Shown here: piece after piece, positions 19,354-51,711 of the stretch
How positions within the stretch are numbered: position 1 is the first letter of the stretch
Layout of the letters: every line of letters starts with the position of its first letter
The notes under the pieces: generated by a model
Told to the model about the DNA's origin: nothing
Databases searched by the model: none
What the model saw: the letters and a program-made list of their open reading frames with translations, nothing else
Source of the DNA: an uncultured Gammaproteobacteria bacterium
Lineage (GTDB): Bacteria > Patescibacteriota > Patescibacteriia > 2-12-FULL-57-11
Length of the DNA: 64,000 nucleotides
Assembly (NCBI GenBank): GCA_964648865.1
Contig: CAZYLV010000001.1
Span: 84,509-148,508 of the forward strand
Direction: 5' to 3'
Position numbers and translations under genes: made by a program

Positions 19354-19375
19354 AAAAAAACCGATTTCCCTATCG
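19354..19375 (-). terminator. weak terminator overlapping the stop of the lipoprotein gene
   Basis: CGAT-agggaa-ATCG followed by GTTTTTTT on the minus strand. Confidence 0.4.
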
Positions 19376-20044
19376 CTGAGCGATCGTCTGGGCCACGAGA
19401 TCCGTGTCTTTGGTCAACTGCTCGATGGTATCGATGGCTTCACCCACTCCAGCGATTTCCAAGTCGTACTCGGCAAAATTCAGCCAGATCCTAACGACCT
19501 TGTCCCCAACGGTCACATGAACCACACGAAGCAACCTGATCACCTTCACTTCATCTGCATCCCTGACTGCGGCAAGGACGTCGAAAAACTTTCCATCCGC
19601 GACGCCATCGATGTATGTCTCCTCCCCATCTTTCGTGAATCGAACGGTGTACTCGATTTCCTCTAGAGCCTGGCGCCCACCGATTGTCGTCAGGCGACGG
19701 AATGGACGTAGCGCACCTTCCTCAATATCGTTGGCGCGAAGCCTGTCTTGATACAATTCCCATCCAAAAAAGTTCTCACCGTCGTCAAAGTAATCGATGG
19801 TCATCGTGGCCGGAATCGTCGCGTCGGAATCAGTGATGTAGTACTGCTTCCTGCCAGCGTCATGCGCGACGGTAAAGCCTGCTGGATACTCGAAAACCAA
19901 GTCACCCTGATCAAACGAGAGCTCGGCTCCCTGATCTTTGGCGTTGGAATTCGTGCCGGGCGACTGGATCAGTCGGAACACGGAGCACCCCGTCCCGAGA
20001 AGAACGAGAGCCGCGACGAAAGCGATGGGACGGAGATAGCGCAT
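19370..20044 (-). CDS. hypothetical lipoprotein
   Basis: The start was trimmed to ATG 20044. N-terminus MRYLRPIAFVAALVLLGTGCS has a signal peptide and lipobox. The track's upstream extension is Arg/His-rich junk. TTGACA-N17-TACGCA lies upstream. Confidence 0.6.
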   Translation of the reverse strand: MRYLRPIAFVAALVLLGTGCSVFRLIQSPGTNSNAKDQGAELSFDQGDLVFEYPAGFTVAHDAGRKQYYITDSDATIPATMTIDYFDDGENFFGWELYQDRLRANDIEEGALRPFRRLTTIGGRQALEEIEYTVRFTKDGEETYIDGVADGKFFDVLAAVRDADEVKVIRLLRVVHVTVGDKVVRIWLNFAEYDLEIAGVGEAIDTIEQLTKDTDLVAQTIAQR

Positions 20045-20106: not shown

Positions 20107-20140
20107 TTGAAAACAGAAACCCGGGCCATGCCCGGGTTTC
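20107..20140 (-). terminator. rho-independent terminator after the giant gene
   Basis: Perfect 11-bp stem GAAACCCGGGC-cat-GCCCGGGTTTC followed by TGTTTTCAA on the minus strand. Confidence 0.6.
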
Positions 20141-20145
20141 TCGTC

Positions 20146-23100
20146 CTACTCGTGCGGGTACACGATGATGTCCCCGGCGTATTCCGTGAATGGCGTATTG
20201 ACTCTGATGTTGCCGGGGGTTAGTGCGCACTCGTTCGTCGTCACTCCACCAGAAGTGAGCGTCGAATTTGTAAGCGCGTTGTAGCAGCTGCTGGCTGCAG
20301 TTCCACCCGGAGCGTCGCACGTCCCGTTGCAGAAGCCCCAGTTGTCCTGCACCTGGACGCGGGGACGATAGACGCAGGCCTCGCGGCCGTCCGGCTGCAC
20401 GCGCACGCAATTGTTGGTGCCGTCCCAGCAGCGGGCCGTGGGGTCGCTGGAGCAGATGTAGGCGTGGTTGTAGGCGAAGGGGGCGGTGCTGTCGCAGGCG
20501 TCCGAGGACGTGCCGAAGGTCGTGCCGTCGCAGCGGGACTGCAGCTCGCGTGCCTCGGTGCCGTCGGGACGTGTCGTGACACGGTACTCGTACCCGCGGC
20601 GGTTCTTGTAGCTGGAGTTGGGGTTGTTGCCCGAGGGATTGGTGCCGTCGCCCCAGTCCACGATGACGTTGCGGATGGGCATCTGATCGTTCTGGGCGTA
20701 GGCGAAGAAGCGGACCGAGACCTGCTTGAAGCCGTTGCCGCCCACGATGTCGCCCACCGACTGTCCGTTGACCGTGATGCGGTCCGTGGCGCCCTCGAAG
20801 CACTGGTTGCTGGTGTTGCAGCCTTCCACGGCGAGCACCACCGGCGGTTGGCCGACGATGTGCGACTCGTCGTAGACGAGCGACGCGGGATCGTAGTCCA
20901 CCTCGGCCGGCAGCGGCACGCCCGGCGCGAAGACGCGGTAGTCGGCGTTGACGTTGCTGTTGACGTCGGTGCGGTGATAGAGGAAGAGGCTCTGCGTGGC
21001 GGCGAAGAGCTGCCGGAGCCGCTCGAGCACGTACTCGAGGTTCGGCAGGCCTGTGCCGGCGGCGTCCGCGCCGTAGCTGCGGCAGGTGACCCCATCGACG
21101 TCGCAGACGCGGCCGGTACCGGTGCCGCTATTCTGGCAGATGCCCGCGGTCGGCCGCTCCGGATCGGTCGGCACGCAGCGCAGGTGCGCGCAATCGCTTT
21201 CGAAGACACAGGCGCGCGAACCGATGCTGCTGTCGGCGTTGACGCAGGTGCCGACGATCTCGCGGTCGTGCGGGTCGCTGCGGCGGCGCACGCCGTCAAT
21301 CGGCCAGCGGCTGTCACAGGCGCGCGGGCTGGTGGCCCAGGTGTCCACGCCGACCGGGCCCGGATCGACCGGCGTCGTGCAGAAGCCGGCGTTCAGGTCC
21401 ACGTTGAACTCGCAGGTGCCCAGGCCCAACCCCGGGCAGGGATCGGTACCGCCTGAGGGGACGGTGCAGCGCTGCAGGCAGGCGCGCACGCGGCCGCTGC
21501 CTTGGTCGCACTGGGGCTGGGACGCTCCGGGCGCGGCCGAGCAGGCCACGTCGCCGTCCTCGCCCACGGGGCAGGTGATCCCGGTGCCGCCCGCGGTGAT
21601 GGTGGCGTAGGGACGCGATTCGGCGTTGGAGACCTCCGTGGCACCGGCCGGGCAGGTGCCGCCCACGGTCGGCAGGTTATAGGCGCGTGTGCCGTCGACA
21701 CGGCAGGTGAGATGCTCGACCGGGCTGTAGTCGACGTTGGCAGCGGTCTGCTCGTCGATATTGGCCGTCACGGCGCGGCCGTAGGGCTGCAGCGCGTCCG
21801 GCGTCTGGGCCCAGGTGTAGCGCAACTCCGGCGTCTCCGTCCTGATGCCGATGGGGTCGGTGATGGTGTAACCCGCGCCAGGGGGCGTTGTGCGGCCGTT
21901 GCCCAGCCGCCCGGTGTAGACCTTGTTGAGCACCGGCGAACCGACGGTCGCCACGGTCACCGCGGCCTCGCAACCGAGGAACGGCGTGCCCGGGGAGTTG
22001 GGGCCGTCCGGGATGGGCGTGTCGAGGGCCACGCAGTCGGCGTAGTGTCCGAGCGCGCTGTCCGGCTCGATGCCGGTCGCGGTGATGGTCACGTCATCAT
22101 CCGGATAATCGAGCCCGGCGCTCTGCTTGAGCGTCTTCCCCTCAAGGAGCCAGACCTCGGCGTAGCTGGCCGGTGCCTGGATATAGGTCGGGATCTGCGC
22201 GGGCGTCACATAGCCGATGCCGTCTTCATCGCAGTGACTGGTGGTCGCCTGGTTGTACCGCTGCATCGGGAGACCCTGTTCGCGTGGCGGTTCGCAGGGC
22301 CGCTTGAGCGGGTCGGCCATGTGGCGCGAGTTGCGGGGCACGCAGATGTAGTGGTTGCCGGACTCGTATGTGGTGCGGCGGCCGGGGCAGTCCTCGACGC
22401 CGGCCGCATCGTGGGAGCTAGAAGGAACCCCGGCCATGACCACGAAGGCCTCGTCCGCCGGGCAGTCGCGCTCCGGGTTGCCCTGTTCGTCGTCGATGAG
22501 GATCTTGGGCTCAACACAGCCGCCCGACCCCGCCCTGCAGTAGGGCGTGCATTCGGGGATGACGTCCGAAAGGGTGTTCTCCGCGCAACCCATCACCACC
22601 GTGTAAGGATCGCCGCCTACCATGATGCTGTGGCTCGTGGTGTTGAACCGGGCGTAGGGTGCGATGCGCTTGTAGGCATCCGGCACGGCGCAATAGGCGG
22701 CGCCGGAGACGTTGAACCCGGCGTTGGGGTAATTGTTGTAGACGTCGACGTTGCCGGAGAGCCGGTCGACCGGCAGCCAGGTGATGCAGGCGCGGCCCGG
22801 CTGCTCGTAGCTGTGGTCCTGCAGCCCGTTGATGGAGAAACCGAGGTCGCGCTCCAGGCAGTAGCCCTCGATGCCCTGGACGGTGTTGACCCGGGAGATG
22901 GCGTTGCAGGTGCCGCCGGTGCCGCAGCTGGTGGCCGCGGACGGATCGCAATCCTGCTTGTCGCGCGGGCCGCCTTGGCAGAGGCCCGACGGAGGTGTCA
23001 CTTCGCTCACCGCGCTGCGGTAGATGGTGCCTTGTCCGCCCGTGTACTCGATCTTCTCGTAGGTGCACTCGCAATCCTGGCCGCGCTCGCAGAGCGTGGC

Positions 23101-26100
23101 GCGGTTGAAGCTCGGCGAGACGGTCTTCGGCAGGGAGCGGAGGAAGTCCGGCGTCGAGGTGGCCTTCCACTCGCGCACCACGGAATTGGGGAACGGCGCG
23201 TTGCGCTCCGGATAGGTGCGGCAGCTCGGCGCCTCGGTGTTCTGCTCGATCCCGAACGGGGTGAGCGGCAGCGGCTCGTCGCGCAGGACGGTGGCGGTCT
23301 CGACCGGCGAGCCGTACGGCGACTGGGCGCAGAACCCGCTCCAGCAGCGGCCGGTGCCGCGCGCCGGGAAGTCCGCGTTGTCGCAGGCGTCGCCGTCGAC
23401 GGCGGTCGCGTCGCATGCGCCGATGACCCGCGCCAGACGGAAGGTCGGCACCTGGTTGCAGAGCCCGACGCCGGCGCAGTCGGCGTCGCTCTCGCAGGCC
23501 CGCGTGGCGTCGTCCGTGCAGAAGCGGCCCACGGGGATCTGCCGCAGCGACTCGACGTCGTACATGTGCGGCACGGAGTAGCCGGAGTAATCGAGCGCGC
23601 CGTAGCCGGTCTCGCGCGACGCATAAGTCTCCGCGGTGAGGATGGTGGGTTCGCGGCTGACCCACCGGGTGCAGACGGAGGTGTCCCCCGACTTCTGGTA
23701 CTCGGCGCAGCGGCCGATGGCGTCGCAGATCTCGATGAAGCGGTTGCGGCTGGGGTCCCAGACCGGCGTCGAGCTCTGGCAGGCGAGCCACTCGCCGCAG
23801 ACACGGTCGCGGGTGACCTTCATGACCACGTTGGCGTCGTCCTGCGCCGGGGCGTAGAGCGCCTGGAAGTCCCCGAGGCTGACCTCCCGGCCGCGCCCGT
23901 CCAGGAAGCGGTCGGAGCACGTGCCGCCGCCGGCGAAGCGCGGTTCGCTGGGGCTGCCGTCCGCCGCCGGCAGCACGCAGGTGCCGGTCTCCCCCGCCTC
24001 GGCGTCCAAGCAATGTTCCGTGACGCTGCACGAGCCGCCCCAGCGGGCGCTGGTGCAGGTCGTGCCGCTGATGGTCGAACGGTAGAGGCACTGGCCGCAG
24101 CCGGCCGGCCCGCAGGTGACGGGCGCCGACGCGCCGCCGCGGACTTCCGCCGCCAGGTTGGAGACGTCGGCGCTCGAGCTCAGCACCGGGCTGCTGGTGT
24201 CGTTGAACAGCACGCAGCCGTCGAGCGGGTTGACCTGGTCGCGGCAGGTGGCCAGGTCGATCTTCTGGTTCTTGAGGTACGTGTAGGGGCGGCCGAGGGG
24301 CGCGGTGATGTCCTTGTCCGTGGGGTCGAGGAACTCCGTGCAGCTCGAGAACTGCGCGGGGCAGAGCCCGGCGAATCCGGCGTAGTCGACGTCGCCGTTG
24401 CGCCAGATGCCGTACGTCGCGCCGGAGATGACGTAGCTCCCGTCGCAGGGGATGTCCGTCCCCTTGCGGAACCAGCCGTCGTACTCGCGCGTCCCCACGC
24501 GCACCGTCTTGCGGTACTCGCAGGTACGGTCTTCCGGATCCTTGAAGTAGGCCTTGCCGGTGGTGATGCCGACCTCGGTCCATTCCTGGCAGCCCACGGC
24601 CTCGATGGTGCAGAGCGACTCGCCGTAGGTCTGCGGGTTGTTGAGCACCGGGACGTCGGCGTACGCCACGGCGGTGCCGGCCGGGTAGGGCTCGCGCCAC
24701 GGCAGCGGGGCGCGGCAGGCCGTCTCTCCCGCGGCGACGCGGCAGATGAGCTCGCCACCGACCGTGCAGTCGCAGGTGGTCGCGCCCGCGCCCGGCGTGC
24801 AGGCGTCCGGCGCGCTGTCGGCGTCGGCGCCGTCGGGCATGGTGCAGGTGCGGCCCGCCGGGTTGCCGGCCAAGGTGCAGCCGGCCTCGCCTTGGTCGCA
24901 CTCGTGCTCGCCGTCGTCGACGACGTAGACCGTGCGGTCGGCAGGCACGACCACGAGGTCCTGCGGCCGGCCGACGCACGTGCCGGGCGCGCCCAAGCGC
25001 ACCGGGACGCCGGTGCCGTCGACGATGGTCACCCCGTCCACCTGGCAGGTGCCGGCCGCGGCCATGGCAAAGGAGACGGCCAGCGGGACGTCGTCGGCGA
25101 CGTAGCGGCAGGAACGGCGGTTGACGCCGACCGTGCAGACCTCACGGCCGTCGACCGTGCAGGGCGTCGGCGCGGCGGCCGGAGCGGCCAGCACGCAGAG
25201 CGCGTTCCAGGACTCACGGCCCGGCGAGAGCGACTGCTGGGTCTGGACGAAGGCCGTGCAGCCCACCGCCTTCTCGCGGCACAGCGAGCTGAAGCCGGTC
25301 AGGTATTCCGTGCGCTCGGCCTTCTCGGCGCGGTACTCGGTGCAGCCGAGCTGGGCCTGCGGCAGGAAGGCGCCGGCGGCGTTCTGGTCGCAGACCGCGG
25401 GGATGGTCCAGCTGTCCTTGACGAGCGCGATGTTGGAGGCCACGCGGGTCAGCTCCACCCGGTCGATGAATGAGGTGTCCGTGAAGCCGGTGAAGACGAG
25501 CCGCTCGTCGGCAGCGGGCACCCAGTCCACCAGGACCGGCCCGAAGCTGTAGCGGTTCCAGGTGGCGCCGAGCGTCGCCCCGGCCGTGAAGGCCTGCTCC
25601 GGCCGCGCACCGGAGAAGCGCACGCCGACGGTGCCGCGGCCCTTTGCCCAGAACGTGAGGTAGTAGGTGTCGCCCTGGACGATGCGCGGATCCGCGACGA
25701 CGCCGCGCGTGAGCTCGGTGCCGGCGTCGACGCGCAGCGAGTGGCCGCCGACGGCGGTCGACTCGGTGGAGACGGCCGTCGCGGCGTCCGGCTGCCAGCC
25801 GTCGCGGCTGCCGCCCTCGAAGTCCCAGGAGGCCAGGCGGCGGACGTTGGCGCCGGCGTTGCCGGTGTAGAGCCGGCAGCCGGCCTCCGGCGCGCCGCAG
25901 GAGCGCGACTCGGGCGCGTAGGCGTTGAAGGTGCAGCCGAGGTCCGAGACGCTCGTCGAATTCCAGGTGCCGCCGATGCCTTCGCAGACGTTGCAGCGGC
26001 CGTCGACGAAGCGTCCGCCGCCGGCGCTGCAGGACGCGGCGTCGGTCGCGGCCGGATCCGTCGGCAGCTCCGTCATGCGCAGCGGCCGGCACTCCTCGGT

Positions 26101-29100
26101 GATGACGATGGTCCGCGAGTAGAGCCGGTAGGAGACGTTACCGGCGATGTCGAAGAACTCGCGGCAGTCGGGATTGGTGCCTGCGAGGTAGATCTCGCGC
26201 GTGCAGCTGGCGAGGTCCGTGCCGCGGATGACCTCGGGCGGACGTGCGCCGCCCGGCCCCACGGCCGCGCCGGCCTTGAGCCGCCATTCCTTGAGCTGGA
26301 AGCCGGTCGTATCCGAACCCTCCCAGGTGTAGTAGACGGGCACGGTCTCCCCCACCGCGGGCTTCTCGCAGGTCCGCAGCTGGGCGTAGTACTCACGGGC
26401 CTCGCCGCCGGCCGCGGCCAGGTCGAGGTTGGTGAACTCCGTGCAGCCCGCCGAGGCCACCGAGCAGGTGTCCCCGCGCTGCGGGATGAGGTGCACCGGA
26501 TAGCGGGCGAAGGACAGCGTGCTAGCTTCTTCCTTATAGGTGGCGTAGCCCGCGCAGACCGCCGGGCAGCGGTTCTCGTCGGCGACGATGCCGGGAACGG
26601 GCGTGCCGCCGGTCGAGGGCGTGTAGGCGTCGCAGCCGACCTCGTCCTGGCGGCAGATGCCGGCGTAGTCCTCGCAGCCCGGCGGGTCGGTGTCGCCGCC
26701 GGTGCATCCCAGCCAGGCCGGCGGCAGCGTGAGGTAGTCGCGGCTCGTGGTGGCGTAGGCGGTCGCGCGGAAGCCGCTCTCGAAGCGGCCGTACTCGAGC
26801 TGCACGGCGTCCACCTGGGCGCCGCTCGAGGAGGTCAGGGAGACCTCGACGAAGGCCGCCGCGGCCGGCGCGGTGAAGCTGCAGGCGGCGCGGGAGAAGA
26901 CCACGTCCGAATCCGGCGTCGCGGCGAGCGCCATGCCGGCGCAGGAGGTGTCTGAGGCCGGCACGCTGAGCGCCGTCCCGGCGGCATCGGTCACGCGCAG
27001 CTGGGCGAAGGCCCCGCCGACCGCGGCGCCGGAGGCCCAGCGTGCGTGGTAGGAAAAGGCGTACGTCTCACCCGGGTCGATGCCGATGACCTGGAGGAAC
27101 GGTCCCGCGCCCGGCACGACCGCGGCCGAACCGTCCTGGGCGTCGAAGAGGTCGGTGACGTAGGCGGCGGGCGCGCCGACCCAGGCGTCCGGGCGCGTGG
27201 CCGTCTGCTCGCGGGACTCGAAACTCGGGTTGCGCACGAGGTTCGCCTCGAGCCCCTCGCGCCGGATGAGCTCGGTGCAGCCCGCGGCCTGCGCGTCGCA
27301 GGTACCCGCGTCGCGGTCGAGGAAGAGGCGGCCTTGATCGGCGCGCCAGTCGCCGGTGTCGCCCGCGGGATCCTGCGCGGTGGCGTACCAACGGCAGCCG
27401 GCGTTCTCCACGGAGCAGATCCCCCGGTCGACGGTCGTGGTCAGCACCGAGAGGCTCCTGCCGCCCTGGCCCGCGTAGGTCTGGCAGCCGGCGTACTGCG
27501 CCGGGCAGCTGTCCCCCTCGATGCGCCAGACGTTGCGCTCGCGGGTGCAGTAGCCGTAGCCCGTGCCGCAGGTGCCGTCCGGGTTCTCGGCGATGCAGGT
27601 GGGCGCGTCCACGCAGACCTCGGAGCGGATGTCCGAATCGGCGGTGAGCAGCGTCGGTCCGTAGACCCGCGCCCGGCACTGGGTGACGGGGTACTTGATG
27701 ATCCAGTCCGGGTCGATGAGCTTGCAGAACTCCCCGTTGGGCCCGTCGCAGTCGTTGAAGGCGGAGACGACGTCGCCGAGCGTCGTGTCGGGATCGGCCT
27801 TCTCCGCGGCCAGCTCGAATCCGATGGGGATGATGCGCGCCTTGCGGAGCTTGATGAGGTTGGAGTAGCAGTAGGCGTTGGTGAAGCAATAGGGATCGGC
27901 GTTGCGCGAGGCGCCCTCGCCGGTCGGCGGCACGAGCGGCCAGTCGGCATGGAGGTACCCTTGTTGGATGGCCTGGCGGACGGTCAGCGGCTCGCCCTGG
28001 AGCGCGACACGCACCCCGGCGGCGAAACTCGGATCCATGACGCAGTTGTTGGGGCCGCGCAGCGTGTCCGGGCAGACGGTGAATTCGGCGACGGCGTCGT
28101 AGGAGGCGACCTCGGAGACGCGCGGCGCCAGCAGCCCGGCGAAGGCGGCACGGGCCGCGGCGCGGCCGCCGCGCACCACGCTCTCGGCGTCCGAGAGGTC
28201 CGGCGGACAGTTGAGCCCGGAGAGCGCCTCGCGGGAGTCGGGCACCGCGTCGCGGAAGGCGCAGGCCAGGTCGTAGCCGGTGGTCTCGAAGAGGCCGCCC
28301 TCGAAGGCGCTCTGCAGCAGGGTCGACGCCAGGGTGTTGACGAAGGTGCCGAGCGCCACGGTCAGCACCTGGATGACGCCCTTCGAAAGCACCGGACCGA
28401 TGACGGAGGCCGTGGACTGCTGCTGCTGGCCGCTCTGGCGCGCGGTCTGCTCGAGCGCGGTCTCGCGGATCACGGCGGCCGGCGTCTTCTGGCGGCCGGT
28501 GACGATGTCGGTGACCGCCTTGAAGCCGTCGCCCTCCTCCCGCTCCAGCTTGCTGATGAGCTCCTGCGCGCTGACCTTCTCCTTGACCTTGAGCGGCGCC
28601 TGGAAGAGCGCCGACAGGCCGGTCTGTCCGGGACCCACGGAGACCTGGATGTTGCGCAGGATGGCGCCGGTCTCGAAGCTCGTCGTGAACTGGTCCCACG
28701 ACTGGGCGATGTCGCTCCACTCGCACTTCGGCTCCGGCGACTGGTACTGGGAAGCGATGCCCAGCTGGACGGCCAGGTTGATGCGCGGGGCGTCCGGTCC
28801 GGACGGTTCGCACAGGTTGAACCCCAGGAAGCCGATCTCCGAGAACGTGCCGATGGCCTCGCCGGCCGCGCCGAGCGCGACGTCCGAGAGGTAGGCGCCG
28901 AAGTCCTTATATTGGAAAAGCGTGCCCTGGCCCTTGCCGCCGGAGGCGATGTAGACGGCGGCGTCGTAGGCGATCTTCTGCGCGAAGTAGTTGATGGCGT
29001 TGATGAAGGCCATGGTCACGCCGCCGAGGAGCACCTTGTCCAGGAAGTCCTCGACGTTGTTGATGGTGGTGTTGGCGCCGGTCACCGGATCGGTGACGAC

Positions 29101-29205
29101 CATCTGGGCGCGCGCCGTGCGCGGGACGAAGAGCCCCGCCGACCCCAAGAAGAGGGTCAGCGAGAGCAGGAACGCCGCGGATGTTTTTCGCGCGCGTGGC
29201 GACAT
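20146..29205 (-). CDS. giant secreted Cys-rich cell-surface protein (3019 aa)
   Basis: N-terminal signal peptide (AFLLSLTLFLGSAGLFVPRTARAQ). Composition is rich in Gly/Thr/Cys/Asp/Pro throughout, with many CxxC and C-x-G-x-C patterns. No TM helix after the signal peptide. It is coupled to the upstream gene, with GAGG located 9 nt before the ATG. Confidence 0.7.
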   Translation of the reverse strand: MSPRARKTSAAFLLSLTLFLGSAGLFVPRTARAQMVVTDPVTGANTTINNVEDFLDKVLLGGVTMAFINAINYFAQKIAYDAAVYIASGGKGQGTLFQYKDFGAYLSDVALGAAGEAIGTFSEIGFLGFNLCEPSGPDAPRINLAVQLGIASQYQSPEPKCEWSDIAQSWDQFTTSFETGAILRNIQVSVGPGQTGLSALFQAPLKVKEKVSAQELISKLEREEGDGFKAVTDIVTGRQKTPAAVIRETALEQTARQSGQQQQSTASVIGPVLSKGVIQVLTVALGTFVNTLASTLLQSAFEGGLFETTGYDLACAFRDAVPDSREALSGLNCPPDLSDAESVVRGGRAAARAAFAGLLAPRVSEVASYDAVAEFTVCPDTLRGPNNCVMDPSFAAGVRVALQGEPLTVRQAIQQGYLHADWPLVPPTGEGASRNADPYCFTNAYCYSNLIKLRKARIIPIGFELAAEKADPDTTLGDVVSAFNDCDGPNGEFCKLIDPDWIIKYPVTQCRARVYGPTLLTADSDIRSEVCVDAPTCIAENPDGTCGTGYGYCTRERNVWRIEGDSCPAQYAGCQTYAGQGGRSLSVLTTTVDRGICSVENAGCRWYATAQDPAGDTGDWRADQGRLFLDRDAGTCDAQAAGCTELIRREGLEANLVRNPSFESREQTATRPDAWVGAPAAYVTDLFDAQDGSAAVVPGAGPFLQVIGIDPGETYAFSYHARWASGAAVGGAFAQLRVTDAAGTALSVPASDTSCAGMALAATPDSDVVFSRAACSFTAPAAAAFVEVSLTSSSGAQVDAVQLEYGRFESGFRATAYATTSRDYLTLPPAWLGCTGGDTDPPGCEDYAGICRQDEVGCDAYTPSTGGTPVPGIVADENRCPAVCAGYATYKEEASTLSFARYPVHLIPQRGDTCSVASAGCTEFTNLDLAAAGGEAREYYAQLRTCEKPAVGETVPVYYTWEGSDTTGFQLKEWRLKAGAAVGPGGARPPEVIRGTDLASCTREIYLAGTNPDCREFFDIAGNVSYRLYSRTIVITEECRPLRMTELPTDPAATDAASCSAGGGRFVDGRCNVCEGIGGTWNSTSVSDLGCTFNAYAPESRSCGAPEAGCRLYTGNAGANVRRLASWDFEGGSRDGWQPDAATAVSTESTAVGGHSLRVDAGTELTRGVVADPRIVQGDTYYLTFWAKGRGTVGVRFSGARPEQAFTAGATLGATWNRYSFGPVLVDWVPAADERLVFTGFTDTSFIDRVELTRVASNIALVKDSWTIPAVCDQNAAGAFLPQAQLGCTEYRAEKAERTEYLTGFSSLCREKAVGCTAFVQTQQSLSPGRESWNALCVLAAPAAAPTPCTVDGREVCTVGVNRRSCRYVADDVPLAVSFAMAAAGTCQVDGVTIVDGTGVPVRLGAPGTCVGRPQDLVVVPADRTVYVVDDGEHECDQGEAGCTLAGNPAGRTCTMPDGADADSAPDACTPGAGATTCDCTVGGELICRVAAGETACRAPLPWREPYPAGTAVAYADVPVLNNPQTYGESLCTIEAVGCQEWTEVGITTGKAYFKDPEDRTCEYRKTVRVGTREYDGWFRKGTDIPCDGSYVISGATYGIWRNGDVDYAGFAGLCPAQFSSCTEFLDPTDKDITAPLGRPYTYLKNQKIDLATCRDQVNPLDGCVLFNDTSSPVLSSSADVSNLAAEVRGGASAPVTCGPAGCGQCLYRSTISGTTCTSARWGGSCSVTEHCLDAEAGETGTCVLPAADGSPSEPRFAGGGTCSDRFLDGRGREVSLGDFQALYAPAQDDANVVMKVTRDRVCGEWLACQSSTPVWDPSRNRFIEICDAIGRCAEYQKSGDTSVCTRWVSREPTILTAETYASRETGYGALDYSGYSVPHMYDVESLRQIPVGRFCTDDATRACESDADCAGVGLCNQVPTFRLARVIGACDATAVDGDACDNADFPARGTGRCWSGFCAQSPYGSPVETATVLRDEPLPLTPFGIEQNTEAPSCRTYPERNAPFPNSVVREWKATSTPDFLRSLPKTVSPSFNRATLCERGQDCECTYEKIEYTGGQGTIYRSAVSEVTPPSGLCQGGPRDKQDCDPSAATSCGTGGTCNAISRVNTVQGIEGYCLERDLGFSINGLQDHSYEQPGRACITWLPVDRLSGNVDVYNNYPNAGFNVSGAAYCAVPDAYKRIAPYARFNTTSHSIMVGGDPYTVVMGCAENTLSDVIPECTPYCRAGSGGCVEPKILIDDEQGNPERDCPADEAFVVMAGVPSSSHDAAGVEDCPGRRTTYESGNHYICVPRNSRHMADPLKRPCEPPREQGLPMQRYNQATTSHCDEDGIGYVTPAQIPTYIQAPASYAEVWLLEGKTLKQSAGLDYPDDDVTITATGIEPDSALGHYADCVALDTPIPDGPNSPGTPFLGCEAAVTVATVGSPVLNKVYTGRLGNGRTTPPGAGYTITDPIGIRTETPELRYTWAQTPDALQPYGRAVTANIDEQTAANVDYSPVEHLTCRVDGTRAYNLPTVGGTCPAGATEVSNAESRPYATITAGGTGITCPVGEDGDVACSAAPGASQPQCDQGSGRVRACLQRCTVPSGGTDPCPGLGLGTCEFNVDLNAGFCTTPVDPGPVGVDTWATSPRACDSRWPIDGVRRRSDPHDREIVGTCVNADSSIGSRACVFESDCAHLRCVPTDPERPTAGICQNSGTGTGRVCDVDGVTCRSYGADAAGTGLPNLEYVLERLRQLFAATQSLFLYHRTDVNSNVNADYRVFAPGVPLPAEVDYDPASLVYDESHIVGQPPVVLAVEGCNTSNQCFEGATDRITVNGQSVGDIVGGNGFKQVSVRFFAYAQNDQMPIRNVIVDWGDGTNPSGNNPNSSYKNRRGYEYRVTTRPDGTEARELQSRCDGTTFGTSSDACDSTAPFAYNHAYICSSDPTARCWDGTNNCVRVQPDGREACVYRPRVQVQDNWGFCNGTCDAPGGTAASSCYNALTNSTLTSGGVTTNECALTPGNIRVNTPFTEYAGDIIVYPHE

Positions 29206-29214
29206 GGGGAACCT

Positions 29215-29886
29215 CTAGCGGGGCGTCGATGAGACGGCCTCGAGCGGATTGTTCTTCTCCAACGTCTGTCGGAAGAGCTGCATGAGCTGCTCGTCGGTGA
29301 AGTTCGAGAGGATGTCGTCGCCGACCCCGGCGCCGCGCAGCAGGACGCGCAGCTGCTCGGGCTCCATGTTCTCGATGAGGTCGGGGGTCAGCCCGACGAA
29401 ATCCGAGCCCGGCAGGGTGAGGGCGGTCGGCTGGCTGCCCGGCGTCGCCAGGAGGTCCGCGGGCTGCGAGCCGCGCGGCCCCACGGCGCTCGCGCCCGGT
29501 CCGCACTGCTGGCCTTGCGGGCAGTTGGGGTCCCCGCCCGCGGCGACCTCGGTGCCGTCGGCCACGCCGTCGGAGTCGGTATCGGCGATATAGGGGCTCG
29601 TGAGGTAGATGGTGAGCTCGTCGTAGTCGGACAGCCCGTCCTCATCCGTGTCGCGCTGCTTTTGGGCGGCGAGCTGCTCGGCGCGCAGCTGGTCCGCGGT
29701 CTTGTAGAGGCCGGTCGGCGCGCCGAAGGGCGCGCGGATGGTGCGGACGATCTGGGCCGCACCAAGCACGAACATCGCCGCGGTGACGACGAGCAGTCCG
29801 ACGAGGACGGTGCGGTGCTCTTGCGCCCAAGGCGCCTGACCCTCTTGCATACGAAGACCGTTCGCGCGCGACGAACGCGCCTTCAT
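29215..29886 (-). CDS. signal-anchor membrane protein with thrombospondin type 3-like calcium-binding repeats
   Basis: One TM helix (VLVGLLVVTAAMFVLGAAQIV). DTDEDGLSDYDE and DTDSDGVADGTE aspartate-rich Ca-binding-type loops. The start overlaps the rsmA stop (TAATG). Confidence 0.6.
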   Translation of the reverse strand: MKARSSRANGLRMQEGQAPWAQEHRTVLVGLLVVTAAMFVLGAAQIVRTIRAPFGAPTGLYKTADQLRAEQLAAQKQRDTDEDGLSDYDELTIYLTSPYIADTDSDGVADGTEVAAGGDPNCPQGQQCGPGASAVGPRGSQPADLLATPGSQPTALTLPGSDFVGLTPDLIENMEPEQLRVLLRGAGVGDDILSNFTDEQLMQLFRQTLEKNNPLEAVSSTPR

Positions 29887-30713
29887 TATAGTCGTTTGTC
29901 GAGCGCCGCCGCAAGCCGCATCCAGGCCGCCGCATCCAGGCGTTCCGCACGGACGTCCGCCGGCACGCCCGCGCCGCCGAGCGCCCGCTGCACCGCGGCC
30001 TTCTCGGCCACGCCCGCCGCCGCCAGGTTGGCGGCCAACGTGCGGCGCGGCGCGGTGAAACCTGCCTTGGCCAGGGCCAGGAGCGCGGCGCGGCCGGCGA
30101 GCGGCGCGGCGGCGGCGTGGACCACCGCGGAGCGCACCTTGGGCGGCGGCAGGAAGGCCGCGGGCGGGACGTCGCAGACCTTGCGCGGCGCGCCATAGGT
30201 GGCGACAAGCAGGGAGAGCAGGTTCTTCCGCGGCCTCCCGAGGATCCGCTCGGCCACCTCACGCTGCACCATGACGGTCAGGGCGCGCGGCAACCGCTCC
30301 GCCGGGACGTCCGGACCCACCAGCGCCCAGAGCAGCGGCGTCGTGATCTGGTACGGCAGGTTGGCGACGACGGAATACCCGGCAGGCAGGCGGAGGGGCA
30401 GGATCTCCAGCGCATCGCCCTCGACCAGCGTGAACCGTGCCTCACCGGAAAACCGCTCGCGCAGCAGCGCGGCCATGCGCGGGTCGAGCTCGATCGCGGT
30501 CACCTGCGCACCGGCGGCGAGCAGGCGCTCGGTCAGCACGCCCGTCCCGGGCCCGATCTCCAGCACCGCATCGCCGGGCGCGAGCGCGGCGGCGGCCAGG
30601 ATGCGGTCGAGCACGCCCTGGTCCACGAGCAGGTGCTGACCGCGCAGCTTGGAGAGCGCGAGCCCTTGGCGCGCCAGGAGCGCGCGGACTTCAGCCCTCA
30701 GGTCGCGGCTCAT
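29886..30713 (-). CDS. rsmA: 16S rRNA (adenine1518-N6/adenine1519-N6)-dimethyltransferase
   Basis: GQHLLVDQGVLDRI, SAM motif LEIGPGTGVLT and NLPYQITTPLL are characteristic of KsgA/RsmA. Confidence 0.85.
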   Translation of the reverse strand: MSRDLRAEVRALLARQGLALSKLRGQHLLVDQGVLDRILAAAALAPGDAVLEIGPGTGVLTERLLAAGAQVTAIELDPRMAALLRERFSGEARFTLVEGDALEILPLRLPAGYSVVANLPYQITTPLLWALVGPDVPAERLPRALTVMVQREVAERILGRPRKNLLSLLVATYGAPRKVCDVPPAAFLPPPKVRSAVVHAAAAPLAGRAALLALAKAGFTAPRRTLAANLAAAGVAEKAAVQRALGGAGVPADVRAERLDAAAWMRLAAALDKRL

Positions 30714-31869
30714 AGAAGGCGTAGAGCAGGGTGAAGCCGGCCGCCAACAGGAACATCAGCTCCCAGCCGGGCGGGAAGAGCGAGGCGATGATGAGGCACA
30801 GCGCCGCCGCGGTGAGCTTGCCGAGGACCACGGCGTGCTCGAGGAAGATGGCCGACTTGGTGACGGAATAGCTCCGGGCCTGGTCGTACGTCATGGTGAT
30901 GAGCGGGATGCCGACGGCCGTGCGGGCGCTGCGGTAGAGCGTGTCGGCGAGGAAGACGCCGCCCAATCCGCGCGTCACCAGGCGCATCAGCCAGGAGAGC
31001 ATCGTGTAGAGCGCCCCGAGCCGCAACACCCGGACCCGCTCCCCCGAGTCGGAGAGCCGCCCCACGGCCACGGCCACGAGCATGGTCATGAGCGTCGCCA
31101 GGGAGACGATGATCCCCAGGTCGAAGAACTCCTTGACCACCAGGTACATGAAGAGCGGCCAGACGATCATGACGACGAATTCCTCGCCGAAACCCATGTA
31201 GGCCACCAGCCGTCGGCGGTTCTCCGGCTTGAAGAGGCGCTTCCAGGCGTCCTCGTAGCTGAAGACGCGCGGCGTGAAGACCTCCGGCGTCATCAGCAAC
31301 GGGATGTTGGAGACGAGGATGAGCAGCGACACCAGCACGAAAAGCGTCGGGAAGCCGAAGGTCACGAGCACCAGCCCGCCGACCGCCGGTCCGGCGACCG
31401 CGGCCACCGAGGCCAGCAGCACCAGCACCGAGATCTCGCGGCCCGTCTGCCCGGCGACGCCGAAACGCGCGAAATCGGCATGGAACCCCGGCCAGTAGAA
31501 CATCTTCTGGATCGCGTAGGCCACGATGGCCACGCCGATGAAGACGGGCGAGTACGGGATGGCGAACAGCGACAGGTAGTAGATGATCAGGAAGGGCGTC
31601 GAGTAGATGATGCCGTGCTCATAGCCGCGCGAGCGGACGACCTTGCCGCCGATCGGCAGGATGGCGAAATAGACGAGGTAGATCCCCAGGTAGAACAGCA
31701 GGATGTGCTGCAGGGAAAAGCCCACCGTCCAGAGGTAGATGGGCTCGAAGATGAGCACGGCCGAGGCCGCGAACTGCAGGATGATGGTCGAGAGGTAGAG
31801 CTCCCGGACCTGCTGGGTGCGGTCGCCGCCGAAGAGGGCGGTGAAGGCGATGCGGAGGCGGTCGAACAT
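30691..31869 (-). CDS. MFS-type transporter
   Basis: Twelve or more hydrophobic helices in two halves with a central loop. The 3' end overlaps the rsmA start by 23 nt. Confidence 0.6.
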   Translation of the reverse strand: MFDRLRIAFTALFGGDRTQQVRELYLSTIILQFAASAVLIFEPIYLWTVGFSLQHILLFYLGIYLVYFAILPIGGKVVRSRGYEHGIIYSTPFLIIYYLSLFAIPYSPVFIGVAIVAYAIQKMFYWPGFHADFARFGVAGQTGREISVLVLLASVAAVAGPAVGGLVLVTFGFPTLFVLVSLLILVSNIPLLMTPEVFTPRVFSYEDAWKRLFKPENRRRLVAYMGFGEEFVVMIVWPLFMYLVVKEFFDLGIIVSLATLMTMLVAVAVGRLSDSGERVRVLRLGALYTMLSWLMRLVTRGLGGVFLADTLYRSARTAVGIPLITMTYDQARSYSVTKSAIFLEHAVVLGKLTAAALCLIIASLFPPGWELMFLLAAGFTLLYAFYEPRPEG

Positions 31870-31872
31870 AGG

Positions 31873-32466
31873 TCAGGGACGGACGGGTCCGGGGCGGAGG
31901 ACGACCACGCGCTCCCCATCCAGACGGACGACGGTCGAGGGGCGACGACGCGGCAGCGCACCGGCGTCGAGGAAGAGGTCCGGCATGGGGCGCCCCGCGA
32001 ACTGGGAGAGGAAGGCGCGGCGGCTGAAACAGGCGGGCCGGCCGCTGCGGTTGGCGGAGGTGGCCACGAGCGGGGCGCCGACCTGCGCGGCCACGGCGCG
32101 GACCGTCGCGGACGCCGGCACGCGCACACCGACCCTGCCGTCCGGCGCGAGCCCTGCGCGACGCACCCGGGCGTCGCGCACCGGCAGGACGACGGTCAGC
32201 GCTCCCGGCCAGTGCCGACGCACGGACCGCGCCGCCGCGGCGTCGAGGCGGAAGAAGCGGCGCACCTGCGCCTCGGACGATGCCATGAGGGCGAGAGGCC
32301 TGGGGCCGCGACCCTTGAGCCGACGGATGCGGGAGACGGCACGCCGGCGGCGGGCATCGGCCGCGAGCGCGTACGAGCTCTCGGTCGGCACCACGACGAC
32401 GCCGCCGCGGCGCAACACGTCCGCCGCGCGCCGCAGGCCAGGCACGCTCAGCGCGACGACATCCAT
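31873..32466 (-). CDS. tsaC: L-threonylcarbamoyladenylate synthase (YrdC/Sua5 domain)
   Basis: VVVPTESSYALAAD, LPGALTVVLP and PLVATSANRSGRPA match YrdC-family motifs. The start was trimmed to the M of MDVVALS. Confidence 0.75.
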   Translation of the reverse strand: MDVVALSVPGLRRAADVLRRGGVVVVPTESSYALAADARRRRAVSRIRRLKGRGPRPLALMASSEAQVRRFFRLDAAAARSVRRHWPGALTVVLPVRDARVRRAGLAPDGRVGVRVPASATVRAVAAQVGAPLVATSANRSGRPACFSRRAFLSQFAGRPMPDLFLDAGALPRRRPSTVVRLDGERVVVLRPGPVRP

Positions 32467-33368
32467 GTGACCGTCTTGGCGATGCCTCGCTGCAGGGAGA
32501 TCCGGGGCTTCCATTTCAGGACGCGCGCCGCCCGGCGCACGTCCAGCACGCTGCGACGCTCCTCGCCCGGACGCGCCGGGGCATGCACGGGCCGCGCGGC
32601 GCTGCCGGTCACCGCACGCATCTCGGCGAGCAGCTCGTTGACCGACGTCTCGACCCCCGTGCCCACGTTGAAGGTGCCGGAGGCGCCTTTGGTGAGCGCC
32701 GCCAAGAGCGCCCGCACCACATCGTCCACATAGACGAAGTCACGGGTCTGCTTGCCGTCGCCGTAGACCATCGGCCGTCGCCCGGCCAGGAGCGCCTGGG
32801 TCCAGATGGCCACGACGCCGGCTTCGGACGTGGGGCTCTGGCGGGGCCCGTAGACGTTGGCGAGCCGGAGCGAGACGTAGGGCAGCAGCCCGGTCAGCCG
32901 GTAGGCGCCGAGGTAGAGTTCCGACGCGAGCTTTGAGACCCCGTAGGGCGAGAGCGGGCGCGCCGGATACGTCTCCGGAGTCGGCAAGACGTCCGCGCCG
33001 CCGTAGATGGCACCGCCGGTCGACGTGAAGACGAACCGCTTGACCCCGCCGGCGGCGAGCGCGCCCTTCACGAGCCGCAGCAGGCCGCAGACGTTGGTGC
33101 GCGCGTCGAAGACGGGATCGGTGACGGAGAGGCGCACGTCCTTCTGCGCGGCCAGATGGTAGATGGCCTCGGGCTTGAGCCGCCTGATCAGGCGCTCGGC
33201 TCCCTCCGCAGCGACGTCGCCGCGCACGAAACGCGCCTTGGCGTTGAGGTTTCCCCGGCTGCCCGTGGAGAGGTCGTCGAGCACGGTCACGCGGTGGCCG
33301 CGCGAGACGAGCGCGTCCGTGAGATGCGAACCGATGAAGCCCGCGCCGCCGGTGACGAGGATGCGCAT
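32448..33368 (-). CDS. NAD-dependent epimerase/dehydratase (GalE-like)
   Basis: MRILVTGGAGFIGSHL Rossmann motif and a YxxxK-type segment (SPYGVSKLASE). Confidence 0.8.
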   Translation of the reverse strand: MRILVTGGAGFIGSHLTDALVSRGHRVTVLDDLSTGSRGNLNAKARFVRGDVAAEGAERLIRRLKPEAIYHLAAQKDVRLSVTDPVFDARTNVCGLLRLVKGALAAGGVKRFVFTSTGGAIYGGADVLPTPETYPARPLSPYGVSKLASELYLGAYRLTGLLPYVSLRLANVYGPRQSPTSEAGVVAIWTQALLAGRRPMVYGDGKQTRDFVYVDDVVRALLAALTKGASGTFNVGTGVETSVNELLAEMRAVTGSAARPVHAPARPGEERRSVLDVRRAARVLKWKPRISLQRGIAKTVTWMSSR

Positions 33369-33375
33369 AGCGACC

Positions 33376-34495
33376 TTATTCTACCACCTCTTTCCCCTTG
33401 CGTTTGGGGCGTCCTTCCTTGACCCAACGCAGGTAGGCCTCGACGAAGCCGTCGAGGTCGCCGTCGAGCACGCCCTGGGTGTCGGAGGTCTCATGCGCGG
33501 TGCGGTGGTCCTTGACCATCTGGTAGGGCTGCAGCACGTAGGAGCGGATCTGGTTGCCCCACTCGGCGCTGGTGTAGGCGCCGCGCAGTTCCTCGCGCTC
33601 CTTGGCGCGCTCGGCCTCGGCGATGGCCGCGAGCTTGGCGCGCAGGATCTTCATGGCGGTCTCGCGGTTCTGCAGCTGGCTGCGTTCGTTCTGGCAGGAC
33701 ACGACGATGCCCGTGGGCAAGTGGGTGATGCGCACCGCGCTGTAGGTGGTCTGCACGCTCTGGCCGCCATGGCCCGAGGAGAGGAAGGTGTCGATGCGCA
33801 GGTCCTTGGGGTCGATGGCGACTTCCTCCACCTCGCCGAGTTCGGGCAGCACCTCTATGAGCGCGAAGCTGGTGTGCCGCATCTTCTCGGCGTCGAAGGG
33901 CGAGATCCGCACCAGCCGGTGCACGCCGTGCTCGCTCCTGAGCGTCCCATAGGCATAGGCGCCTTCCACCGAGACGGTAGCGCTCTTGATGCCCGCCTCG
34001 GCGCCGCGGTGCTCGTCGATGACGCGCGTCCGGAAACCCTTCTTCTCGCAGTACCGCAGCACCATGCGCAGCAGCATGGCCGTCCAGTCCATGGCCTCGG
34101 TGCCGCCGGTGCCGGCGTGGAAGGCCAAGATGGCGTCGGTGCGGTCGTGGACGCCGGAGAAGAGCACGGTGAACTCGAGCTTCCCGTATGTCCGCTCCGC
34201 GTCCGCGAGCGCGGCTTCGATGTCGACGCGCAGCGACTCGTCGCCCTCCGCCGCGAAGCTCCGCAGGTCGGCGACGTCCGCGCGGAGCTTCTCCCAGGCC
34301 TCGATCTCCTTGCGCGACGCCGCGGCCTTGGCGGAGACGGCTTGCGCCCGGTCGGCATCCTGCCAAAAACCGGGCGCGGACATCTCCTGCTCGAGCGCAG
34401 CTACCTCGTTTTTGCGGGTATCCAGGTCAAAGTAACCTCCATGCGGAGGCGATGCGCCCGTCAAGGACAGTTGCCCGTTCGACCAGGTCCTTCAT
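33376..34495 (-). CDS. prfB: peptide chain release factor 2, with programmed +1 frameshift
   Basis: SPF tripeptide motif, GGQ motif (HGGQSVQTT) and RITHLPTGIVV. A frame-0 ORF of 22 codons runs from ATG 34495 and ends at CUU UGA C. The main ORF continues in the +1 frame from 34428. Confidence 0.85.
34427..34432 (-). promoter_or_regulatory. prfB autoregulatory +1 frameshift site CUU UGA C with upstream internal SD-like GGAGG
   Basis: Minus-strand sequence GCA UGG AGG UUA CUU UGA CCU read directly. It has the same architecture as the E. coli prfB site. Confidence 0.7.
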
Positions 34496-34499
34496 GCGA

Positions 34500-34847
34500 T
34501 TACAGGTTGACCTTCTTGGCCCAGTCGCCCACCAGCGGCAAGTCCGTCTTCTTCCCGCCCAGGGCGTTGATGATGCCCATGATCGACAGGATGAGCACCG
34601 CGATGGACCCGAAGAAGCTGATGATCCACCCGAGGATCGGGAAGATGCCGATGACCATGAGGGCGATCGCGGCGATGAACAGGACGAAGCCCTGCTTGGC
34701 GTGGTACTGCACGTACGGGCTGTCCTTCTTGCCCAGGAGACCGACCAGGCAGAGCACGGAGACGTAGCTGATCGCCGCGATCAGCTTGTTCTCTTCGACA
34801 TCCTTGTCCATGCCCCCCTGCGGCGCCGTCTTCTGCATCTCGTCCAT
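34500..34847 (-). CDS. DUF4870-like small membrane protein
   Basis: AAISYVSVLCLVGLLGKKDSPYVQYHAKQGFVLFIAAIALMVIGI pattern. The start was trimmed to MDEMQK; the track's upstream extension is unlikely to be coding. Confidence 0.5.
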   Translation of the reverse strand: MDEMQKTAPQGGMDKDVEENKLIAAISYVSVLCLVGLLGKKDSPYVQYHAKQGFVLFIAAIALMVIGIFPILGWIISFFGSIAVLILSIMGIINALGGKKTDLPLVGDWAKKVNL

Positions 34848-34984
34848 AAGGATCTGCGGGAATAATGATGATATCGGCCCCAGCATAGCATCCCGCGGCC
34901 CGGTGGACAACCGGTTTTGACGCCGCCTCGAGGCAGGAGTAGTCTCCCAGCCGACGCCTGGAAGCGGGCGTCTGGAGGTGCAGC

Positions 34985-35350
34985 ATGCCGGACTTCGGTT
35001 CGCTCTGGCCCAACCGTCGACGGTCACGGCCGCCGACCGCCGACGACCTCGTCGCCGACGCCATCCATCGCAATCCGCCGACCGAGCGCGACGCCGAGGA
35101 CACGGACTACGCCGCCCTCTTCCGTCGGCTTGCGGACCAGGCGGTCCGCGCCTATCGCGGCGGCACGTCGGTCGAGGTCGCGCTCGACGACGCGGAACGC
35201 GCGCTCGTCACGGCGGAGCTCATGCCGATCATCGCCGGCTTGCGTCGCTACCTGCAGCACGCGCTCGGCCTCTCCAGCGAGCCGCACATCGAGTGCGACC
35301 TGCGCGGCAGCCGGCTCGGCCGACCCATCCGCTTGCGCGTCACCCGGTGA
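34985..35350 (+). CDS. hypothetical protein (121 aa)
   Basis: GGAGG SD 6 nt upstream of the ATG. It has its own terminator. A lone plus-strand gene among minus-strand operons. Confidence 0.45.
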   Translation: MPDFGSLWPNRRRSRPPTADDLVADAIHRNPPTERDAEDTDYAALFRRLADQAVRAYRGGTSVEVALDDAERALVTAELMPIIAGLRRYLQHALGLSSEPHIECDLRGSRLGRPIRLRVTR

Positions 35351-50775: not shown

Positions 50776-50793
50776 ATGGCCCCAGTATACAAG

Positions 50794-50820
50794 AAAAGGC
50801 GCCTCGATGAGACGCCTTTT
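50794..50820 (-). terminator. rho-independent terminator after tRNA-Leu
   Basis: AAAAGGCG-[ctc-gat-gag inner stem]-CGCCTTTT. T-runs on both strands. Confidence 0.5.
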
Positions 50821-50821
50821 C

Positions 50822-50906
50822 TGGTGGGCCGAGAGGGACTCGAACCCTCAAGCCTTGCGGCACACGCCCCTCAAACGTGCGCGTATACCAGTTCCGCCAC
50901 CGGCCC
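50822..50906 (-). tRNA. tRNA-Leu (anticodon GAG), type II with long variable arm
   Basis: Folded by hand. Acceptor GGGCCGG/TCGGCCC with one G-U. Anticodon stem CACGT/GCGTG, loop TTGAGGG. Variable arm TGCCGCAAGGCTT. T-arm GAGGG-TTCGAGT-CCCTC. Discriminator A, encoded CCA. 85 nt. Confidence 0.8.
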
Positions 50907-50917
50907 GCAGGTTGTCT

Positions 50918-51691: not shown

Positions 51692-51711
51692 GGCAAGGAC
51701 GCCGCCGGAGG

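Follow-up and report, generated by a model that had tools for sequence, protein, structure and literature searches.

We report on a pair of adjacent genes on the minus strand of a 64-kb window, by which we mean the whole stretch of DNA that was analysed (64,000 nucleotides of contig CAZYLV010000001.1). One gene encodes a giant, cysteine-rich protein of 3019 amino acids; the other, directly upstream of it, encodes a 223-amino-acid protein with TSP3 repeats. The pair closes a string of eight genes and is followed by an intrinsic terminator. In the order of transcription, and in window coordinates, the elements are:

34500-35027, minus strand: DUF4870 protein (Pfam)
33376-34464, minus strand: release factor RF2, prfB (Pfam)
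32448-33368, minus strand: NAD-dependent epimerase (Pfam)
31873-32514, minus strand: Sua5/TsaC, tsaC (Pfam)
30691-31869, minus strand: major facilitator superfamily (MFS) transporter (Pfam)
29886-30713, minus strand: RsmA, rsmA (Pfam)
29215-29886, minus strand: TSP3_bac partner, 223 amino acids (Pfam, 28.1 bits against a cut-off of 25)
20146-29205, minus strand: giant gene, 3019 codons (open reading frame and homologues)
20109-20141, minus strand: intrinsic terminator directly past the giant stop codon (hairpin and U-run)

An earlier note on this DNA had described the genes from the DUF4870 protein to the giant as all co-directional, which is borne out, and as separated by 0-10 nucleotides (nt) or overlapping. 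The latter description fits the 1-nt overlap of rsmA with the TSP3 gene (TAATG), the 23-nt overlap of the MFS gene with rsmA, and the gaps of 7 nt between prfB and the epimerase gene, 3 nt between tsaC and the MFS gene, and 9 nt between the TSP3 and giant genes, where a Shine-Dalgarno-like GAGG stands eight bases ahead of the giant ATG. It does not fit the DUF4870-prfB junction, which measures 35 nt with the open reading frame (ORF) calls used here. The start of tsaC is ambiguous, and yields an overlap of either 67 or 23 nt. The terminator is a 12-bp GC-rich stem followed by a U-run, with a folding energy of -28.9 kcal/mol and a z-score of -4.4, and none of 200 shuffled sequences did equally well. 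A generic terminator scan of the gene string gave nothing comparable, in agreement with the claim that the next strong terminator comes only past the giant gene. The pair is probably made constitutively, by read-through from the string that contains rsmA, with transcription ending at this terminator.

The giant ORF is a genuine coding sequence, as evidenced both by the contrast between a GC content of 0.93 at third codon positions (GC3) and of 0.55 at second positions (GC2), and by 84 full-length homologues with 24-64% identity. A second search, with a profile of 16 sequences and a capped number of candidates, recovered the same 78-84 proteins. The product of the ORF contains 140 cysteines (4.6%), with Ala, Gly, Thr, Val and Asp also abundant. 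The N-terminus shows a basic n-region, a hydrophobic core, and then the residues ARA followed by Q; this AxA-Q site is kept across the family, with A33 present in at least 90% of the members. The signal peptide that the earlier note had proposed is therefore supported, and so is its statement that no further transmembrane (TM) helix exists: the sole strongly hydrophobic segment is amino acids (aa) 8-26. Past aa 284 there is no hydrophobic segment, and the C-terminus (...YAGDIIVYPHE) carries neither an LPXTG sortase signal nor a TM helix. The signal peptide and the lack of a further TM segment suggest that the giant is exported via Sec and located at the surface. Internal repeats, which the earlier note had thought worth looking for, turned out to be lacking at the levels of both protein and DNA: self-BLASTP at E<=10 returns the identity match alone, and Tandem Repeats Finder (TRF) detects no tandem array in the giant gene.

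Our strongest single result concerns the upstream gene. The proteins of the window were compared, using tblastn, to 87 homologous loci, of which 83 have upstream DNA: in 83 of these 83 loci, the TSP3 gene lies directly upstream of the giant gene, on the same strand. No other neighbour of the giant is invariant, and this strict pairing supports the role of dedicated partner that the earlier note had assigned to the TSP3 protein. In the seven loci with gene calls, the gap between the two genes ranges from 6 to 51 nt, and the median length of the partner family is 231 aa. The description of the partner given by the earlier note, with calcium loops of the DxDxDG type and one TM helix, also stands. 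The protein has a basic N-terminus, a single TM or signal-anchor segment at aa ~24-46, a conserved PF motif, and two TSP3 repeats, matched by PF18884 in two stretches within aa 79-117; after these come the motif DPNCPxGxxC, a linker of low complexity and a helical motif that is conserved at the C-terminus. The TM segment, the two repeats and the cysteine pair are conserved across orthologues, and the motif D.D.D.h.D..E is found once or twice in all 83 of them; the repeats are predicted to bind calcium.

The pair is widespread. All the named homologues of the giant belong to Patescibacteria (Uhrbacteria, Falkowbacteria, Magasanikbacteria and Komeilibacteria), which we take to be the class ABY1 in the GTDB scheme, and all are annotated "hypothetical protein"; the window itself comes from a high-GC Patescibacterium. 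A pattern scan with one genome per GTDB species gives at least 582 genomes with a relative of the giant. A hidden Markov model (HMM) of the domain at aa 350-560, compared to 1.84 billion representative proteins, yields 1164 clusters at 50% identity, of which 973 have E<=1e-30. The best 150 matches have about 3000 residues or are pieces of proteins of that size, which is why the domain appears to be exclusive to the giant family; in nearly all of these 150 it sits at positions ~330-600, and earlier in a few fragments truncated at the N-terminus. Many GTDB representatives titled "uncultured Gammaproteobacteria bacterium" (L010, L016, L024, L032 and others) hold the TSP3-giant pair among typical Patescibacteria neighbours, and the titles of these metagenome-assembled genome (MAG) records are evidently mislabelled.

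The giant can be divided as follows, in window coordinates:

29104-29205, minus strand: signal peptide, aa 1-34; read from sequence, with predicted cleavage between ARA and QMVV
28171-29103, minus strand: N-terminal domain, aa 35-345; few cysteines, long helices in a low-confidence prediction
27526-28158, minus strand: most conserved domain, aa 350-560, ~210 residues; confident model, apparently found in this family only
26776-27258, minus strand: first CBM-type β-sandwich, aa ~650-810; model, Foldseek and weak CBM_4_9 match
25426-25824, minus strand: second CBM_4_9 module, aa ~1128-1260; Pfam, 31.1 bits against 25.9
20956-22608, minus strand: variable region, aa ~2200-2750; 15-30 of the 84 homologues align, candidate specificity region
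20149-20868, minus strand: conserved C-terminal domain, aa ~2780-3019; VDWGDG motif, weak PKD_4 match

The limits of the variable region come from homologue coverage: aa 1-2200 form a core that is conserved, the block that varies comes next, and the C-terminal end is conserved again. Sixteen sampled members, with 28-53% identity and lengths of about 2700-3400 aa, share a strongly conserved core; 48 cysteines are invariant among them, and 18 more nearly so. The cysteines are in part organized in a hairpin motif: the strict form C-x5-7-GC-xx-[FYW] occurs 7 times in the giant, where 0.16 copies are expected from shuffles. Between aa 567 and 1664 (window ~24214-27505), there are ~11 irregularly spaced copies of the form C-x6-[AVS]GC-x-x-[FYW], each with invariant cysteine and a β-strand-like stretch ahead of it; no Pfam repeat matched this motif.

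A domain scan, which the earlier note had named as a check, does identify a carbohydrate-binding module (CBM): CBM_4_9 (PF02018) matches aa 1128-1192 above the gathering threshold, and aa ~654-726 weakly. Most of the protein is without recognisable domains. Pfam names nothing else in it except for a faint PKD-like signal at the VDWGDG motif, and a search of PDB sequences with the whole giant gives no relatives. In the family, 13 of the 16 diverse members carry at least one CBM_4_9 match, with a best E-value of 7e-14. Other members carry other modules: P0071 has an NHL β-propeller at ~1490-1700, P0084 a VWA domain at 2694-2852, and P0026 two PKD domains at 715-882. Judged from sequence, swapped modules combined with a variable block are what marks a protein of recognition or adhesion. 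The earlier note had suggested a secreted surface protein of the adhesin type, and the signal peptide, the CBM-type β-sandwiches and the lineage-swapped binding modules all speak for it.

An AlphaFold2 model of aa 1-1125, computed from an alignment of 35 sequences, predicts long helices at aa 42-320 with low confidence (predicted local distance difference test, pLDDT, of 30-60) and three confident blocks, aa 370-510, aa 650-810 and aa 890-1110. The top Foldseek matches of this model in the PDB are CBM16, CBM4, CBM22, CBM61 and CBM6, with E-values from 1.6e-5 to 4e-4, and they include modules linked to xylanase and arabinanase. We assign these matches to the block at aa 650-810 (pLDDT about 76-95) because of the weak CBM_4_9 match there. 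The CBM modules of the giant are thus predicted to adopt the β-sandwich fold of solved CBMs, with a putative role in glycan recognition. Modelled alone from 42 sequences, aa 350-560 form a compact α/β fold with a pLDDT of 87.8 and a predicted template-modelling score (pTM) of 0.82, and Foldseek finds no match to this fold among PDB structures. The charged residues that are invariant or nearly so in this domain are R454, E464, D498, R527 and D533.

We now turn to the genes that follow the giant in its relatives. In locus L005, these are a 1192-aa polytopic membrane protein, two proteins without Pfam matches and, identified by Pfam, PrgI (VirB3-like), a TraC-like protein and a VirB4-like ATPase, that is, a cluster resembling a type IV secretion system (T4SS). 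Orthologues of the first two genes of that cluster exist in the window, on the same strand as the giant gene and 15 kb downstream of it:

2118-4862, minus strand: VirB6/TrbL-like polytopic membrane protein, 914 aa; its orthologue is close downstream of the giant in many relatives
837-2114, minus strand: 425-aa soluble protein; orthologue of the 442-aa protein that is gene 2 of the T4SS-like cluster of L005

The 914-aa protein has a signal peptide, about 8 hydrophobic segments and a long hydrophilic tail, and no Pfam match of its own. Its orthologues have 7-10 hydrophobic segments, 3 of 15 match Pfam TrbL/VirB6 (PF04610) with a best E-value of 1.3e-5, and those of L005 and L027 lie upstream of PrgI and TraC-like genes; a PDB sequence search with a profile of the family gave nothing useful. 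On this basis the membrane protein family looks VirB6-like.

The frequency of the association was evaluated in both directions. Forty-nine loci contain the giant in full and have 1.5 kb or more of flank downstream; in 18 of these, a VirB6-like gene follows within 6-8 kb on the same strand, and in 6 of the 18 within 1 kb. In the reverse test, JGI metagenomes were scanned with the VirB6-like profile, and loci whose upstream DNA covers 3 kb or more were retained: a giant lies upstream, on the same strand, in 33 of 43, a count that is skewed towards VirB6-like orthologues of the kind initially encountered beside giants. From the end of the giant to the VirB6-like match, the distance is usually 70-2900 nt, and PrgI and TraC-like genes follow in 30 of the 37 loci where 8 kb or more of DNA is available downstream. 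The layout commonly seen is (rsmA)-TSP3-giant-(0-2 genes)-VirB6-like-x-x-PrgI-TraC-like-VirB4. The arrangement of the window is a derived state, in which aminoacyl-tRNA-synthetase paralogues, M23 peptidases and other genes are inserted between the giant and the cluster; the latter probably continues beyond the window start with PrgI, TraC-like and VirB4 genes, as in L005 and L027. A terminator past the giant stop codon is found in many relatives.

In the enterococcal plasmid pCF10, the adhesin genes prgA, prgB and prgC precede prgH (VirB6-like), prgI and prgJ, and the position of the TSP3-giant pair before the T4SS cluster is analogous to that of these genes. The T4SS of Patescibacteria are related to the monoderm MPF_FATA conjugation machines, and a survey of them detected no adhesins such as PrgB (PMC12102498). 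Two secreted Peptidase_M23 proteins (5002-6921 and 16582-19251, both on the minus strand) are encoded between the giant and the T4SS-like genes of the window. M23 and LysM domains are carried by the VirB1-like wall hydrolases of Patescibacteria (PMC12102498), and the two window proteins may serve the same T4SS apparatus.

The mature N-terminus of the giant provides a further lead towards secretion systems. It reads QMVVTDP, and QFVVSDP in the family member P0010; aa 24-52 match the NCBIfam VirB5 model (NF010434) with an E-value of 0.002, the score being 17.9 bits where the cut-off is 346. The Pfam family DUF4141 is matched with an E-value of 0.005, at 16.6 bits against 30, and this match is found in 2 of 16 members. 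The resemblance is weak and covers the first ~15 mature residues, and only part of the family has the motif, which is of the type Q-[FM]-V-V-[ST]-D-P. A profile of the N-terminal domain built from 79 sequences, compared to all PDB sequences at E<=10, found no T4SS protein, TraC of pKM101 and TrwJ of R388 being unmatched. Membership of the giant in the VirB5/TrbJ family was rejected: the score is far below the cut-off, the motif belongs to a subset, and no VirB5 of the PDB is matched. The resemblance stays a lead only.

On the other side of the pair, the typical order is prfB-epimerase-tsaC-(MFS)-rsmA-TSP3-giant, with rsmA upstream in ~65 of 83 loci. The earlier note had regarded the coupling of a giant surface protein to translation-factor and rRNA-modification genes as unusual. 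The conserved synteny with rsmA is itself real; three observations weaken the idea that it has a function. Co-directionality is not specific to the string of the giant, since almost the whole 64-kb window is a tightly packed array of housekeeping genes on the minus strand, among them GroEL, YidC, NusA, several aminoacyl-tRNA synthetases and histidine kinases. In other genomes, the loci with gene calls have rsmA-TSP3 spacers of 34-187 nt, which leave room for a promoter. Finally, in a clade formed by L061, L064 and L076, the pair is found in a different housekeeping neighbourhood, which in L061 consists of SMC, VanW and Hsp20 upstream, and of NusA and YidC downstream. The giants of this clade are larger, at 3600-3840 aa, and a conserved ORF of ~300 aa, with no Pfam match, overlaps their stop codon. 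The link to a "housekeeping operon" is thus probably architectural.

Taken together, these data lead us to favour, with moderate confidence, the reading in which the giant and its TSP3 partner form a Sec-exported, disulfide-stabilised surface complex for contact with a host or a substrate. The giant would be exported via Sec and would form its many disulfides outside the cell; it would then be displayed, together with the partner, on the surface of an ABY1-class Patescibacterium, the single N-terminal membrane segment of the partner holding the complex on the cell. There, the pair may serve for contact with, or adhesion to, a host cell or a polymer surface: the two CBM4/9-type β-sandwiches and the lineage-variable region would recognise the target, and the conserved N-terminal half, including the family-specific domain, would form a scaffold or a docking part. 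Lying at the 5' edge of a T4SS cluster in many relatives, the pair may also serve that machine as an adhesin.

Several facts weigh against this proposal. The giant itself has no cell-wall or membrane anchor, so that its retention on the cell rests wholly on the putative interaction with the partner, and ~85% of it has no recognisable domain, which leaves room for an enzymatic or structural role; its N-terminal domain, moreover, is modelled at low confidence only. As for the secretion system, a terminator stands between the giant and the VirB6-like gene in most genomes, T4SS genes are no more strongly syntenic with the pair than are rsmA and prfB, whose own synteny is hardly functional, and in one clade the pair adjoins neither T4SS genes nor rsmA and prfB. 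A role of the giant as an adhesin or other extracellular element of the T4SS is, in our opinion, plausible but rather unlikely. The bolder form of this idea has much the same standing: the TSP3-giant pair would be the missing extracellular, host-contacting module of the ABY1 T4SS, a disulfide-stapled stalk or adhesin of roughly 3000 residues whose helical N-domain would dock on the VirB6-like platform, whose core would be a fold absent from solved structures, and which would bridge to the host.

It is also conceivable, if unlikely, that the giant belongs to the extracellular structure of the T4SS, as a stalk or tip on the VirB6-like platform that is VirB5-like in function, instead of being an independent adhesin. 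Its gene lies directly 5' of the VirB6-like gene in many genomes, which is the virB5-virB6 order, and in L135, L141, L104 and L119 the gap between the two falls to 9-46 nt without a terminator; the N-domain is predicted, with low confidence, to be helical, and the weak VirB5 and DUF4141 matches point the same way. Several facts stand against it: the VirB5 score is a small fraction of its cut-off and the motif is limited to a subset of the family, no VirB5, TraC or TrwJ chain appeared in the PDB search, the giant usually has a terminator directly 3', and the adjacency recorded in the two counts above (18/49 and 33/43) is absent both from the window, where 15 kb separate the genes, and from the whole clade of L061.

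The other explanations are each less likely than such a T4SS element. The giant could be a constitutive envelope or coat protein, S-layer-like or a wall scaffold, whose expression with housekeeping genes reflects a structural role: the conserved position at the 3' end of the housekeeping string, the limited range of lengths and the strongly conserved core among the 16 members, and the wide distribution of the family across the class would all fit. We hold this to be quite unlikely, since the variable block and the lineage-specific binding modules fit target recognition better, and S-layer proteins are usually cysteine-poor and self-assembling, and do not swap CBM, VWA or NHL modules. The same CBM modules could suggest a secreted enzyme acting on polymers of the host or the environment, with aa 350-560 as a new catalytic module that the CBMs would target; in known enzymes, glycoside hydrolases are the usual companions of CBM4/9 modules, and this compact α/β domain does contain the five charged residues listed above. 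However, no catalytic family was found by Pfam, NCBIfam, PDB sequence or fold search, Cys or Gly occupies most of the invariant positions and so hints at a structural role, and 3000 residues are far beyond the needs of a CBM-bearing enzyme, all of which makes the idea very unlikely. Functional or regulatory coupling of the giant to the translation-factor and rRNA-modification genes, as one operon, is the most improbable explanation of all. It would account for the overlapping or very short junctions of the window, for an order from prfB to the giant that is kept in most relatives, and for the lack of a comparable terminator-like hairpin inside the string; it has to contend with a window that is tightly and co-directionally packed throughout, with spacers elsewhere that leave room for promoters, with ~18 of 83 loci in which rsmA is not upstream, with the relocated pairs of L061, L064 and L076, and with the lack of a plausible biochemical link.

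The surface complex that we propose would matter for several reasons. ABY1 Patescibacteria are abundant in groundwater and sediments; to our knowledge they are uncultivated, and we know of no account of how they attach to hosts or feed. The gene pair takes up ~1% of a genome of ~1 Mb, and its recurrent position at the edge of the T4SS cluster makes it a concrete adhesin candidate for the T4SS of Patescibacteria; if it is indeed the host-contacting module of that machine, it would open a first molecular way into the question of how this large uncultivated class makes contact with its hosts. The 210-residue domain, confidently modelled and without PDB relative, and the new Cys-hairpin motif form a structural target, and the pair might be used as a marker, or as an antigen, in searches for hosts by pull-down or labelling.

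Three other features of the window deserve mention. Between 10144 and 14603, on the minus strand, lie three adjacent class-II aminoacyl-tRNA-synthetase paralogues (Asp/Asn/Lys-type) of 460, 713 and 269 aa, the second with an N-terminal extension of ~290 aa and the third containing the C-terminal catalytic part alone; one would not expect an array of this kind in a reduced genome. The segment 18000-20100 has a GC content of 0.57, compared to about 0.68 elsewhere in the window, and may be recently acquired DNA. Within it lie an ORF of 224 aa that resembles a lipoprotein (19370-20044, MRYLRPIAFVAALVLLGTGC...) and the start of the 889-aa protein with M23-peptidase and MopE motifs at 16582-19251. 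Two sensor histidine kinases are encoded close to each other on the minus strand at 48628-53793; CHASE4 and PAS domains occur in one of them, and a 7TM region in the other. The GC content is lower (0.60) in the 52-54 kb region.

One of the closest known systems is PrgB, with PrgA and PrgC, of the Enterococcus plasmid pCF10. PrgB and, by prediction, the giant are large, Sec-exported surface proteins, encoded (for the giant, in many relatives) 5' of a VirB6-like/VirB3(PrgI)/VirB4 cluster, in T4SS classes that are related (PMC12102498), and the cell-cell contact that PrgB provides for the secretion machine is the role proposed for the giant. The giant shows no homology to PrgB in sequence or domains. 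Unlike PrgB, it has no LPXTG signal, is 2-3 times larger, cysteine-rich and non-repetitive, and would depend on a separate TSP3 signal-anchor partner; polymer-adhesin (GbpC-like) or Ig-like stalk domains have no Pfam match in it or in the 16 members, and its linkage to T4SS genes is frequent, not universal. The VirB5/TrbJ minor pilins of diderm T4SS also have a Sec signal and a mature N-terminus similar to that of part of the family. A helical N-domain, which the giant has in a low-confidence prediction, and a gene just before the VirB6-like gene, as in many of its relatives, may be further resemblances. VirB5 proteins have about 220 aa, compared to ~3000. RTX/Bap-type adhesins such as FrhA, LapA and SiiE resemble the giant in being multi-thousand-residue, calcium-associated proteins with terminal ligand-binding modules. 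They consist of tens of tandem Ig-like repeats, are cysteine-poor and leave the cell by type I secretion with a C-terminal signal, whereas the giant has no detectable repeats, an N-terminal Sec signal, 140 cysteines, and TSP3 repeats on a separate polypeptide.

A search of the literature outside subscription journals found no description of the giant family, its pairing, its non-repetitive build, its core domain or its T4SS neighbourhood; its general kind, large cysteine-rich extracellular proteins in the candidate phyla radiation (CPR), is already known. Such proteins, with a proposed role in attachment, were described in Peribacteria (Anantharaman et al. 2016, PMC4736985). Like the giant, they come from CPR bacteria, are large and functionally unannotated, and carry a signal peptide as well as numerous cysteines. 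They average about 1650 aa with 7% Cys, they are encoded in a 14-gene cluster and vary between strains (PMC4736985); the giant is set apart from them, by description, through its ~3000 aa, its single gene per examined locus, its fixed partner and its conserved core.

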